64,000 bases of DNA from Halorutilales archaeon Cl-col2-1. GTDB taxonomy: Archaea; Halobacteriota; Halobacteria; Halobacteriales; Afararchaeaceae. The notes below the pieces were generated by a model. It ran no database searches. It worked only from the letters and a program-made list of their open reading frames with translations, and was not told the DNA's origin. Where the stretch lies: positions 576,001 to 640,000 of the forward strand of contig CP169074.1 in NCBI GenBank assembly GCA_041891055.1, read 5' to 3'. Position 1 is the first letter of the stretch. Every line of letters starts with the position of its first letter. A program made the position numbers and the translations under genes. Below are positions 7,036-58,868 of the stretch, in pieces.

Positions 7036-7116
7036 CTCGTCTGGCTTTCGTCTGACTTCATGGTTTGAACTCGACCTCGACCTTGGTTTCTGTCTTGGTA
7101 TCTGCTATGTCTCATT

Positions 7117-8658
7117 CTACACACCTCCTGCGGTGAGCTCGACAACACCCGCGGTCGAGCTCTGTATCATTTCGAAAGCGATGTCGGGCTGTACCCCGAG
7201 CGCGATTATCACGAGTACGAGAAGGACGAGAGGAACTGTCTCGGTGATCGAGGCGTCGGTGAGTCCGTCCTTGTACTCTTCGGGAGCGTCGTACTCGCCG
7301 AAGAGGGTTCTCTGCATCGCGAAGAGTAGGTATCCCGCGACTATAACGACTCCGAACATCGCTACCGGGACTATAATCCTCGATCCCTCGAACGATCCCA
7401 TCGATCCAAGGAAGACGAAGATCTCGGCGGCGAATCCCGACATACCGGGGAGCCCCATGTATCCGAAAGCCGCCGCAACGAAGACTGTCGTCACGACGGG
7501 CATCCTGTGGGCTAAGCCGGAGATCTCGTGTACGTCACGCGTGTGGAGCTTGTGGTATACGACTCCGACTACCATGAAGAGGAGACCGCTTATGAGACCG
7601 TGTGAGATCATCTGGAAGGTCGCGCCTCCGACGGAGTACTCGGTGTACGCCGCTAAGCCGACTATGACATATCCCATACTCGATATGGACGAGTAAGCGA
7701 CTATCCTCTTGAGGTCGGTCTGTGCCATCGCTAAGAGCGCGCCGTAGATGACACTGACCGCGCCGACGACCGCGATCTCAGCGGTGAGTCCCGCGGCGAC
7801 GTCGGAGAGCATAGTGAAGTTGAACCTCAGTAGGGCGTAAGTACCCATCTTGAGGAGTACGCCCGCGAGTAGGACACTAACGGGCGTCGGTGCCTGAACG
7901 TGGGCGTCGGGTAGCCATGTGTGAAAAGGAACTAGGGGAACCTTTACGGCGAATCCTATGAAGAGGGCGACGAACGCCATCAGTACGAGGATGTCAGCGG
8001 GTATTCCCCACGCGCCTGTGAGACCGCCCGACTGTAGAGCCTGTGTCAGAGCGACCAGGCTGAGGCTGTCGATTCCCGAGTTGAAGATCAGCGCGAAGAC
8101 ACCTATGAACATCACGAGAGACGCGATGTTGGTGTAGACGAAGAACTTCATCGCGGCGTACTTCCTGTCTTCGCCTCCCCAGACTGCTATGAGGAAGTAC
8201 ATCGGGACGAGTACGGCTTCCCAGAAGACGTAGAAGACTAGGAAGTCGAGTGCAGTGAAGACGCCTATGAGACCACCTTCGAGTAGGAGGACGAGGGCGT
8301 AGAACTCGTTCTGTCTCTCGTCTATCGACTGCCACGCCGAGAGTATCGCGAGGCTCGCGAGGAACGTCGTGAGTACGACTAAGGGCATGCTGACCCCGTC
8401 GAGACCCACGAGGTACTGGACGTCGTAGCCTCCGAGAGTGATCCAGTGTACCGCCTCCTCGAACTGGACGGCTCCCGAGTCGAGGAGAGCGTTTCCTCCC
8501 GACGGGTCGAAGAGCGACCAGACGTAGAGACTGATGCCGAGAGGCGCGAGAGACGCCACGAAGGCGAAGTACTTCGACTTGTCACCCTTAATGAAGAGGG
8601 TGACGAGCGCTGCTACCATCGGTACGGCTATGAGTGCTGTTATCTTCATTAGAACCAC
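7117..8658 (-). CDS. nuoM: Complex I-like subunit M
   Basis: PFHTWLPDAHVQAP and LLKMGTY motifs. Confidence 0.95.
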   Translation of the reverse strand: MVLMKITALIAVPMVAALVTLFIKGDKSKYFAFVASLAPLGISLYVWSLFDPSGGNALLDSGAVQFEEAVHWITLGGYDVQYLVGLDGVSMPLVVLTTFLASLAILSAWQSIDERQNEFYALVLLLEGGLIGVFTALDFLVFYVFWEAVLVPMYFLIAVWGGEDRKYAAMKFFVYTNIASLVMFIGVFALIFNSGIDSLSLVALTQALQSGGLTGAWGIPADILVLMAFVALFIGFAVKVPLVPFHTWLPDAHVQAPTPVSVLLAGVLLKMGTYALLRFNFTMLSDVAAGLTAEIAVVGAVSVIYGALLAMAQTDLKRIVAYSSISSMGYVIVGLAAYTEYSVGGATFQMISHGLISGLLFMVVGVVYHKLHTRDVHEISGLAHRMPVVTTVFVAAAFGYMGLPGMSGFAAEIFVFLGSMGSFEGSRIIVPVAMFGVVIVAGYLLFAMQRTLFGEYDAPEEYKDGLTDASITETVPLVLLVLVIIALGVQPDIAFEMIQSSTAGVVELTAGGV

Positions 8659-56838: not shown

Positions 56839-56916
56839 ATGACAGTAAAAGATATCGCCAGAGAAGACGTCGTGACCGCAGATGGGAAAGAGAGCATAGC
56901 AAACGTATGTGAGATA
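56839..56916 (+). pseudogene. CBS-domain gene, 5' part (interrupted)
   Basis: MTVKDIAREDVVTADGKESIANVCEI joins in frame to the part at 58533. Confidence 0.88.
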
Positions 56917-57140
56917 GTGACATCCTCCGCGCCGTGAACGGCGCGGCTTCCCCTACGAGGGGAATCCGGGCTGGCAGGTTTCAGTCCGAGTACGCCGCGA
57001 GCGTCATCTGCGAGGGTTTCTCGCTCGGCTCACGGTGGACTGTGGCGTTCGCAAGACGTTAGGAGTCTTGCGTGCATACTGGAACACGACGTGTTCCAGA
57101 GGCGGTGTCACAACCGCTCCCGTCCCCGCGGCGAGTCATT
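56917..57140 (-). ncRNA. Predicted TnpB omega/reRNA scaffold (5' limit uncertain)
   Basis: Stem-loops at 57079-57099, 57051-57071, 56948-56964 and 56927-56946 between the tnpB 3' end and the right end. Confidence 0.7.
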
Positions 57141-58274
57141 GCGTCCGGGTTCCCAACGGACGCTCTCTCCCCACGGGTCTACGCGACTGGCGATATTTGC
57201 CGCCGCGTTAATATCTGCTTGGAACTCCGATACGTGGCAGTCGTCGTGCGGACACACAAACTCCGCTTGCTGACTCCGCCGACCGAGACGACCGCAAGCG
57301 TGGCACGTCTGCGAAGTGTACGCGGCGTTCACGTATTCAACGCGAATACCTGCCTCGGTCGCTTTATCCCCAATACGCCCCTGTAGCCGGGCGAATGCCC
57401 AGTTGTGGAGGCGGCGGTTCATCCACTTGCCGTAGTCGAGCTGCTCGCGGATATACGACAAGTCTTCGAGTACGATTACCGGATCATCAAACTGCTTGGT
57501 GTACTCGACAGCCTGCCGAGACGCTTTCTCCACGATATCCGTAAGCGCGTTCTGGTAGTAGTTGAATCGCTCGTCGATCCGCCACTCGGCGGCGTCACGC
57601 TCCTGTAGTCGTTTCAAAGTCGTGTGCATTTCTTTGCGGAGGTGTCGTGCCCGACTGCCACTGACGATCATCGGCTTCCGTGGTACGTCGCGTTTCAGGG
57701 CACAGCCCGTAATCAACGCGCTCTCACCTACGTCGAAGCCGATGTACGTTGGGTTGTCCGGTTCGGTCGGTTCTTCGACCGGGTATTCGACGGTGACGTG
57801 TAACTCCCACGATGTGCGGTGTCGTTGTAGCCGCAACTCGCCTGCCTTCGCGTCTTCGGAGAGTAGGTCGAACCACAGAGATTCCTGTTCTGGATTGATC
57901 CGAAGCGGAATCCAGAAGTTCGTTCCGCGACCGGGCTGTGGAACCTGCCACACGAAGCCGTAGTCACGCTCGTCGGAATAGTCGAAGGTCGCCGCCCGAT
58001 TGACGAACCGTAGCGGATGCTCGTTGTCTAACTCCTCGGCGTTGTACGTCGAATGGAGTTTCGGGACGTAGGATTTGAGCGCGTCTTTGGCTTGGTACGG
58101 CAGGTCGTAGGGCGTCACAACGTCGTTGACGGCAGACATTGTGGTCGCTTCGGCATCGAAAGCGTCGTGGAGAGCGTCGCGGTAGGTGTCCAAGAGCCGC
58201 TGTAGGCGTTGCTCTTTGCCCGTGGTGGGCGTTGCGAGCGTGGCTTGTAGCGTCTTCGTCACCGTTTCGGACAC
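57108..58274 (-). CDS. tnpB: RNA-guided nuclease TnpB
   Basis: RuvC motifs GFDVGE, VLEDL and ADINAA; zinc finger CHAC..CPHDDC. Confidence 0.95.
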   Translation of the reverse strand: MSETVTKTLQATLATPTTGKEQRLQRLLDTYRDALHDAFDAEATTMSAVNDVVTPYDLPYQAKDALKSYVPKLHSTYNAEELDNEHPLRFVNRAATFDYSDERDYGFVWQVPQPGRGTNFWIPLRINPEQESLWFDLLSEDAKAGELRLQRHRTSWELHVTVEYPVEEPTEPDNPTYIGFDVGESALITGCALKRDVPRKPMIVSGSRARHLRKEMHTTLKRLQERDAAEWRIDERFNYYQNALTDIVEKASRQAVEYTKQFDDPVIVLEDLSYIREQLDYGKWMNRRLHNWAFARLQGRIGDKATEAGIRVEYVNAAYTSQTCHACGRLGRRSQQAEFVCPHDDCHVSEFQADINAAANIASRVDPWGESVRWEPGRNDSPRGRERL

Positions 58275-58328
58275 GAACTTAGTTATGTGTTAAACAAAAT
58301 TAAGTGTATTGGTGAAATAGACTGTTGT

Positions 58329-58466
58329 ATGCCGAACATCAATTTCGAGGTAGAGGATGACCAGTATGAGCGGTTGAAAGAGACGAAGAAGCGGCACGGG
58401 CTGACGTGGAAAGGAATGATGCTGCACGCCCAACGGGAGTTGGATTCCGACGAGAGCGACGAATAG
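58329..58466 (+). CDS. 45-aa putative ribbon-helix-helix protein inside the element
   Basis: Hand-translated MPNINFEVEDDQYERLKETKKRHGLTWKGMMLHAQRELDSDESDE; divergent from tnpB. Confidence 0.75.
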   Translation: MPNINFEVEDDQYERLKETKKRHGLTWKGMMLHAQRELDSDESDE

Positions 58467-58532
58467 CGGCTGTATAGTACCATGTCGGATTCCTTCCCGA
58501 CGTAAACGACGGGATTCCCTCCTTGTAGAAAG

Positions 58533-58868
58533 ATGGAAGACGAGACCGTCGGGAGTGTCGTGATAGAGGAGAACGGCTCTCCTGAGGGGCTCGTGACAGA
58601 CAGGAAGATAGCTATGGAGATGGGGCACGGAGTCGACGGCGGAGCGCCCGTAAGCGAGATAATGACGACCGACCTCGTGACTGCCGACGCAGACGATGGT
58701 GTCTTCGAGGTTCTGAGGACGATGTCGGGCGAGAGTATAAGGAGATGTCCCGTAGTCGAGAACGGCGAACTCGCGGGTATCGTCACACTCGATGACATGG
58801 TAGTACTCCTCAGCGACGAGCTCGCCAACGTCTCGGAGGTCATCACAGGTCAGTCGCCGCCGTATTAG
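58533..58868 (+). pseudogene. CBS-domain gene, 3' part
   Basis: VGSVVI..GLVTDR and IRRCPVV..GIVTLDD motifs. Confidence 0.88.

Follow-up and report, generated by a model that had tools for sequence, protein, structure and literature searches.

An IS1341-type element of a halophilic archaeon whose IS608-style ends, insertion target and candidate TAM can be read from the sequence

What interrupts a CBS-domain gene in Halorutilales archaeon Cl-col2-1, and how much of its boundaries, its target and the specificity of the nuclease it encodes can be read from the DNA? The window analysed here, a stretch of 64,000 nucleotides (contig CP169074.1, positions 576,001 to 640,000 of the forward strand), carries on its minus strand, at positions 56917-58532, a 1616-bp element of the IS200/IS605 family, of the IS1341 type and without tnpA. 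We consider it probable that this is a non-autonomous element with IS608-style ends, a TnpB nuclease with its omega-RNA, and a small ribbon-helix-helix (RHH) repressor. The system is well known in kind, and the present copy is slightly damaged, with two private lesions. An earlier note had proposed the element type, both boundaries, an omega-RNA with its guide, a transposon-associated motif (TAM) and an active nuclease; judged from the sequence, that description is correct in nearly all points, all the sequence features it named being present on the minus strand at the positions it gave, while its claim of activity is unproven; the frameshift and the scaffold insertion of this copy, and the small RHH-like gene divergent from tnpB, had escaped it. 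The two parts of the interrupted gene, the left end (LE) and the right end (RE) of the element are made up as follows.

56839-56916, plus strand: CBS-domain gene, 5' part, 26 codons, MTVKDIAREDVVTADGKESIANVCEI
58533-58868, plus strand: CBS-domain gene, 3' part, 111 codons, beginning MEDETVGS (Pfam CBS, 1.8e-18)
58536-58533, minus strand: CCAT, left cleavage tetranucleotide and insertion target, in the flank and outside the element; predicted TAM, present in the empty site of a same-genus genome (G001)
58495-58532, minus strand: LE, consisting of a 14-nt spacer, a DNA guide and a subterminal imperfect palindrome
58532-58519, minus strand: LE spacer CTTTCTACAAGGAG, 14 nt
58518-58515, minus strand: LE DNA guide GGAA
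58514-58495, minus strand: LE hairpin TCCCGTCG-TTTA-CGTCGGGA, with a T.T mismatch, followed by AGGAATCC
56917-56950, minus strand: RE, consisting of guide, palindrome, AGGATG and TCAC
56950-56947, minus strand: RE DNA guide GAAG
56946-56927, minus strand: RE hairpin CCGCGCCG-TTCA-CGGCGCGG
56926-56921, minus strand: AGGATG
56920-56917, minus strand: TCAC, right cleavage site, the last four bases of the element
56916-56901, minus strand: flank TATCTCACATACGTTT, directly after the RE, prospective 16-nt guide of the omega-RNA

Along the minus strand, the left flank (...TCTTCCAT) is followed by the LE, about 130 nt corresponding to a small open reading frame (ORF) on the opposite strand, a 54-nt A+T-rich spacer and tnpB, and past tnpB by about 190 nt of stem-loops, GAAG, a hairpin, AGGATG, TCAC and the flank TATCTCACATACGTTT. 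The boundaries proposed for this arrangement are fixed by an empty site. Comparison of the 3' CBS part with 41 genomes, the organism's own among them, located an uninterrupted CBS gene in the same-genus genome G001 (locus L035), a 96% identical match with a longer open frame. The DNA of this locus reads ...GTCTTCCAT|TATCTCACACAC..., which is the left flank of the window fused to its right flank, and the junction GTCTTCCAT|TATCTCACAC (CCAT|TATC) falls at exactly the predicted boundaries (58533|56916), so that the empty site has the form ...TTCCAT|TATCTCAC... and a target duplication is absent. The boundaries cannot be slid in either direction, since the last base of the left flank (T) differs from the last base of the RE (C) and the first base of the LE (C) differs from the first base of the right flank (T). 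In agreement with the earlier note, excision of 56917-58532 leaves a single open CBS frame, the same that is intact in G001. The comparison shows insertion as single-stranded DNA 3' of CCAT, between CBS codons 26 and 27, with no duplication. Three copies in the organism's own genome suggested that the T after TCAC might also belong to the element; this was rejected because the flanks of 48 relatives differ directly past TCAC, where the sequences diverge. After the insertion, a natural internal ATG of the CBS gene (Met27) lies directly at the left end of the element, and a 111-aa truncated CBS protein would therefore be possible if transcription exits the element.

In IS608 (ISHp608) of Helicobacter pylori, the fourth base of each DNA guide pairs with position C-1 of the cleavage site, which fits both of the pairs of that element. 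Guide base 1 pairs with C-3 and base 2 with C-4, and both pairs engage the two nucleotides just 3' of the hairpin in base triples, while A-2 is otherwise unpaired; measured from the hairpin foot, the left cleavage site is 19 nt away on the 5' side and the right one 10 nt away on the 3' side (PMC3201880, PMC5934647). The pairs themselves, as recorded in print, are the left guide AAAG with cleavage site TTAC and the right guide GAAT with TCAA (PMC5934647), in agreement with those that the earlier note had used. Applied to the window, this rule derives CCAT from GGAA and TCAC from GAAG, and prediction equals observation at both ends. The likeness to IS608 extends to the subterminal imperfect palindromes, to the placing of the 4-nt guides 5' of the hairpin feet, to integration on the 3' side of a tetranucleotide that is not duplicated, and to the geometry of the right end, where TCAC ends 10 nt past the hairpin foot and AG stands directly after the foot. 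The window element differs in that it lacks tnpA, resides in an archaeal halophile and carries an extra divergent RHH-like gene, as well as in its target (CCAT versus TTAC), its right site (TCAC versus TCAA) and its left distance, CCAT ending 18 rather than 19 nt before the left hairpin foot.

A match of this kind gains its weight from the relatives of the element. When one genome from each species was scanned, 56 loci were obtained from many haloarchaeal genera; TnpB is 86-91% identical to the window copy at about 30 loci, and most of the others have about 70% identity. The LE hairpin was recognised upstream of tnpB at 39 of these loci, and at 35 the tetranucleotide predicted by the element's own guide was found 12-15 nt 5' of that guide (GGAA/CCAT at 17 loci, GGGA/CCAT at 1, AGAA/CTAT at 2, GAAA/TCAT at 12 and GATA/TCAT at 3), compared with only 2 of 117 cases in which the tetranucleotides predicted for the other classes occurred at the same place; the match in the window therefore exceeds chance. 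A further four loci (L056, L066, L073 and L081) fit under a looser hairpin rule, and one of the misses, L088, is a false match on a 1176-bp contig. The RE was found at 48 of the 56 loci and fits at 45 (GAAG/TCAC at 41 and GATT/TCAA at 4). The organism's own genome shows AGAA/CTAT in L003 and L006 and, by eye, in L002, whose hairpin is interrupted, together with right ends of the type GAAA/TCAT at two loci and GATT/TCAA at four; genome-wide regular-expression scans with loose hairpin rules returned mostly noise, and their use was restricted to rows having both a TTYA loop and a TCAN end. Terminal inverted repeats are absent, and the relatives' subterminal palindromes carry compensatory changes. 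These comparisons show a sequence complementarity of guide and cleavage site that covaries at both ends. The alignment of other copies' flanks, which the earlier note had suggested as a check, also settles the extent of the target: CCAT precedes 18 of 19 related left ends bearing GGAA or GGGA, as that note expected, and the optional T that it placed before CCAT is unconserved (C6, G6, T4 and A2 in the 18 copies), for which reason the target is CCAT and not TCCAT.

The genes and RNA between these ends, and the two lesions, occupy the following positions.

57108-58274, minus strand: tnpB, 388 aa, C-terminus curtailed by a frameshift; D181, E270 and D354, zinc cysteines C324, C327, C341 and C346
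57122-57133, minus strand: private 1-nt insertion, CGCCGCGGGGAC here and CGCCAC-AGGAC in relatives, a gap in 39 of 39 other rows of the omega-RNA alignment described below
56917-57180, minus strand: omega-RNA scaffold, overlapping the tnpB 3' end and the RE
57044-57100, minus strand: private 57-nt insertion with two hairpins, CTGGAACAC-GTC-GTGTTCCAG and CGCAAGAC-TCCTAAC-GTCTTGCG

The protein scores 61.3 bits with Pfam PF07282 (Cas12f1-like TNB domain; cut-off 26.3) and 23.4 bits with PF22126, under the cut-off of 27 for that family, and the solved chains that align best are Cas12f and TnpB structures, the top one being Cas12f 9nzq_A (9.7e-19). The motifs GFDVGE, VLEDLS and QADINAAANI match the catalytic motifs of these chains and assign D181, E270 and D354, bearing out the intact D-E-D triad described earlier; the catalytic columns and the zinc cysteines are conserved in those relatives that reach them. 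Values of dN/dS, the ratio of nonsynonymous to synonymous substitution rates, are 0.107-0.189 against nine relatives. The isoelectric point (pI) is 5.57, with 61 D+E versus 50 K+R residues, and acidic proteins are expected of salt-in halophiles. By its motifs, the protein combines a RuvC-like fold, bearing the D-E-D triad, with a TNB domain of the zinc-ribbon type, and nuclease activity is predicted.

The case for an omega-RNA rests on an alignment (A1) of the last 260 nt of 40 elements, 52-73% identical to the window copy, from which a consensus of 51 pairs was drawn after four unsupported long-range pairs had been dropped. Within this consensus, 98.2% of cells are paired and compensatory change is seen in 22 pairs; with slid partners these figures fall to 33-44% and 4-9, respectively, and none of 500 shuffles reached the observed values. 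The scaffold should start at or before about 57180, because one covarying helix sits within the coding region. The RNA of the window copy has a minimum-free-energy z-score of -4.74 and retains the consensus helices in its predicted fold. For this copy too, then, the alignment points to a structured RNA spanning the tnpB 3' end and the RE, with a guide derived from the flank. RNAs at the 3' end of tnpB are in print for Halobacterium as sense overlapping transcripts (sotRNAs) or omega-RNA (PMC12558985; PMC4615843); in a search of the window against Rfam, no match at E<=1 was found to the sotRNA families named in PMC12558985. As for the 57-nt insertion, a second copy that would make it a repeat family was not found in the genome. 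The omega-RNA region of a Natronococcus relative (L095:2566-2825) carries a different two-hairpin insertion, of 51 nt, at another place, and such insertions therefore recur independently.

The prospective guide, the flank TATCTCACATACGTTT, is identical to the sequence 3' of CCAT in the empty site, as the earlier note held, and its sole perfect match in the genome is itself. For ISDra2, the TAM TTGAT equals the target motif of TnpA, as in the systems studied (PMC10097598), and by the same reasoning the TAM of the present TnpB would be CCAT, the insertion target site. The window protein resembles ISDra2 TnpB in its RuvC D-E-D residues, its zinc-ribbon TNB domain, an RNA that would derive from the 3' part of tnpB together with the RE, the use of the flank as guide and the expected identity of TAM and transposon target motif (PMC10097598), and differs from it in its predicted TAM (CCAT versus TTGAT), its pI of 5.57, its frameshifted tail and its closest solved chain, which is a Cas12f and not a TnpB. 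The genome also contains a near-cognate site (G000 C1:270123, minus strand), where CCAT is followed by TATCTCACGTACCTCC, which departs from the guide at a single one of its first 12 positions. The stretch around this site (...QEVREIMADLGF...) is coding and conserved, and the match is probably due to chance through shared E-I-M codons; about 0.035 such sites are expected by a simple calculation. A literature search for TnpB, CCAT and TAM as whole words found no publication joining the three, although registered tables of element ends may already record the target, and a search for biochemically tested haloarchaeal TnpB proteins turned up none.

Between the LE and tnpB lies a small gene, together with the region that it shares with tnpB.

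58329-58466, plus strand: 45-aa RHH-like gene, MPNINFEV..., divergent from tnpB
58275-58328, no strand assigned: A+T-rich divergent intergenic region, 54 bp, with presumed promoters and a presumed RHH operator

Within the ORF at 58287-58466, the conserved start is M15 (58329), which gives a protein of 45 aa. By tblastn, an RHH-like gene is present at the same place and in the same orientation at 44 of the 56 related loci (43-95% identity), stops occurring only upstream of the conserved Met, and it occupies the slot of tnpA. In the protein database there are 32 clusters, 44-73 aa in length, all called hypothetical save one named CopG family; the 45-aa protein has no Pfam match at E<=0.01. The AlphaFold2 monomer consists of a coil (residues 1-9) and two helices (10-23 and 27-40), with a predicted local distance difference test score (pLDDT) of 67. 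The homodimer model scored 0.52 versus 0.00 for the best of three controls, and brings residues 3-8 of both copies into contact as in ribbon-helix-helix proteins, with at least 96% contact agreement between runs and a partner pLDDT of at least 79. Of 30 solved pairs, 20 reached the mark applied, as did 1 of 23 single chains; these counts are only approximate owing to the use of a custom alignment, and the pass may itself reflect likeness, since RHH dimers are common among solved folds. A block CACTTAAnTTTGTyTAA in the intergenic region is kept in the closest relatives. The RNA-library contigs of relatives give this gene region almost no cover, from which no inference is drawn. Moon et al. (bioRxiv 10.64898/2026.09.24.754181) show that in bacterial IS605-family elements the tnpB promoter is bound and repressed by Arc, an RHH protein, and, by analogy, the 45-aa dimer is most likely a repressor of the shared promoter region. 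Both are small genes within an element, of the RHH type in Arc and of a candidate RHH type here, often divergent from tnpB in the case of Arc, with a presumed bidirectional promoter; the gene in the window differs in being archaeal, and its likeness is one of arrangement and predicted fold, not of a Pfam match. In the main text of the Arc preprint, archaea appear only within a reference title.

How such an element could move is suggested by its sisters. Y1 TnpA is present in five of the five host genomes of relatives considered, with 1-5 matches each, and the tnpA-tnpB elements L108, L110, L112 and L113 have TnpB proteins 67-75% identical to that of the window. These four and L109 share the RE in common (GAAG, hairpin, AGGATG and TCAC), the RE hairpin of L113 being identical to that of the window, and the LE guide of the autonomous elements is AGAA, with CTAT seen by eye in L108 and L110. 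Trans-mobilisation by tnpA-bearing sister elements is likely, and in its present host the element may be stranded.

Haloarchaeal IS605-type elements are in print for Haloquadratum and Natronomonas, with 4-5-bp targeting sequences and near-terminal palindromes, as are their terminal-only derivatives, the palindrome-associated transposable elements (PATEs), and small repeats that insert into palindromes (PMC3119063). The organism studied here conforms to that record, with many diverse tnpB genes and few tnpA genes, palindromes, short targeting sequences, small repeats inserted into palindromes and a terminal-only derivative; guide/cleavage covariation and a CCAT target do not appear in the examined portions of PMC3119063 and PMC12558985. 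The derivative (L006, G000 C3, about 7069-7340, minus strand) is about 270 nt long, PATE-like and without tnpB, with the LE guide AGAA past a flank CTAT and the RE guide GAAA with the end TCAT. A paralogous element (L002, G000 C1:914851-916941; TnpB 69% identical, target CTAT) has both palindromes interrupted, the LE loop by about 400 nt and the RE loop by 43 nt, and carries a 47-aa RHH-like ORF that lies on the tnpB strand and overlaps the tnpB start instead of being divergent. The genome as a whole contains 182 perfect hairpins of the form NNNNATC-nnn-GATNNNN, versus 2 in a block-shuffled genome, in 44 clusters with a spacing of about 24-25 nt (for example C1:914885-915280, in the LE loop of L002, C1:979448-979545, C1:533470-533567 and C2:51552-51649). 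For 13 of the 44 clusters a TnpB match is no more than 1.2 kb away, although regions this close make up 3.8% of the genome, and arrays of this kind are found inside IS200/IS605 subterminal hairpin loops. They recall the Haloquadratum SMR-A repeats (PMC3119063), but are arrays of short variable hairpins; Tandem Repeats Finder reported nothing on L002, though hairpin arrays are present there.

Taken together, these features outline a mechanism in which a Y1 TnpA acting in trans, of the sort borne by sisters with the same RE in other haloarchaea, could excise and integrate the element. An omega-RNA of about 200-260 nt, transcribed from the 3' part of tnpB and the RE and taking its guide from the neighbouring flank, would be bound by TnpB, and this complex is expected to cleave the allele that lacks the element (CCAT, then TATCTCAC...); repair of the cut allele from the occupied copy would restore the element. 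The divergent 45-aa RHH dimer would repress the shared promoter region.

Several observations weigh against this account of a working element. No tnpA lies between the element ends, which makes it non-autonomous and of the IS1341 type, and the 2.06-Mb genome, despite 26 TnpB-like matches, holds a single Y1 TnpA (PF01797), located elsewhere and adjoining a TnpB of only 35% identity, in an element with a different RE and with a hairpin array occupying the loop of its LE hairpin. The element is single-copy in its genome, and G001 has no close copy, the best match there being 71% identical and covering part of tnpB only; with the CBS gene intact in G001, this indicates a lineage-specific insertion. 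The pairing rule has its misfits, namely L059 (GGAA with flank CGGT), L054 and L062 (AGAA with flank CCAT, the RE of L054 being degenerate as well) and, at the right end, L075, L090 and L100; among the autonomous elements, L109 and L113 lack CTAT despite AGAA, L113 having CTGT (both by eye). The resemblance of the RNA to the Rfam family HgcC (RF00062) is scored at 31.3 bits for the window copy and at 27.8-34.5 bits for four of six relatives, under the gathering score of 50: the alignment to the model is full-length, with a GAUGA box, two hairpins and CCCCGCCC-UUUA-GGGCGGGG-AGGAGGUCA, and the omega-RNA consensus shows the same hairpin-AGGAGGUCA end, but this is likeness short of membership. Contigs from three RNA-library runs, which lack the 57-nt insertion and join 57047 to 57130, belong to relatives of 85-95% likeness, may be DNA and cannot show RNA ends; with at most 0.30 of sampled words found per run, and 0.06-0.09 in the RNA runs, the sequencing runs are uninformative on the expression of this copy. 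The two lesions belong here also. The 57-nt insertion is in none of the 39 aligned relatives, and the private 1-nt insertion shifts the tnpB frame after about residue 382, replacing the last 29 or so residues by RGRERL and a stop. The 388 aa given by the earlier note are thus the length of this copy and not the family form, which is 411 aa in 23 of 27 relatives when read from the start codon (410, 408, 343 and 155 aa in the others). The 57-nt insertion, the lack of tnpA and the distant affinity of the genome's only Y1 tnpA also mean that 'active' was an overstatement.

The same facts admit a rather doubtful alternative, in which the copy is an immobile, decaying relic, capable at present neither of transposition nor of RNA-guided cleavage: beyond the private lesions, the shortened protein, the single copy and the mismatched tnpA with its disrupted LE, similar hairpin insertions break both palindromes of the paralog L002. 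Against this stand the intact catalytic triad, zinc cysteines and entire RuvC/TNB core, and both guide/cleavage pairs, which are unmutated. The C-terminal domain of ISDra2 TnpB is disordered and a deletion variant still cleaves, and its omega-RNA is dispensable 5' of about -117 (PMC10097598); the insertion in the window lies 128-184 nt from the scaffold 3' end, and the predicted fold retains every consensus helix located downstream of this insertion. By analogy, the frameshifted tail need not kill the enzyme, and the frameshift and insertion may both be tolerated, although they may equally mark a copy that is beginning to decay. That a functional TnpB reads something other than plain CCAT, either a degenerate motif (YYAT or NNAT) or one longer than four bases, is unlikely. 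Relatives with TnpB proteins 67-90% identical and near-invariant RNA 3' ends do insert at CCAT, CTAT or TCAT, which share A at -2 and T at -1, and a flexible TAM requirement has been stated for a TnpB (PMC11043419), but TAM and TnpA target motif coincide in the systems that have been studied, TTGAT of ISDra2 being an example (PMC10097598), and nothing in the sequence favours a longer TAM, the base at -5 being unconserved. Domestication of TnpB as a host regulator or RNA-guided repressor would accord with the absence of tnpA and the tight linkage to a small DNA-binding protein; it is highly improbable for a gene with an intact and conserved D-E-D triad, enclosed by intact transposon ends, found at different genomic sites across the 56 loci and many genera, and disrupting here a host gene that is intact in the sister genome. 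A non-autonomous element with IS608-style ends, TnpB, omega-RNA and RHH repressor hence remains the probable reading.

Within the family, single-base changes of the left guide (GGAA, AGAA and GAAA) parallel the insertion sites (CCAT, CTAT and TCAT), and we tentatively suggest, as a possibility more doubtful than not, that the clade is a natural retargeting series whose TnpB either co-switched or reads YYAT, and whose TnpA-less branch is an RHH-regulated homing element that borrows TnpA. Retargeting with near-invariant omega-RNA 3' ends would then imply that TAM reading was switched in few substitutions or relaxed to YYAT. A DNA-guide rule established for IS608, from a bacterium, predicts both ends and the target of TnpA-less elements in archaea, so that boundaries, likely TAM and guide can be read straight from the sequence. 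The family offers an acidic, presumably salt-tolerant TnpB with a predicted 4-nt TAM, and its CCAT, CTAT and TCAT members could show how TAM reading follows transposon retargeting.

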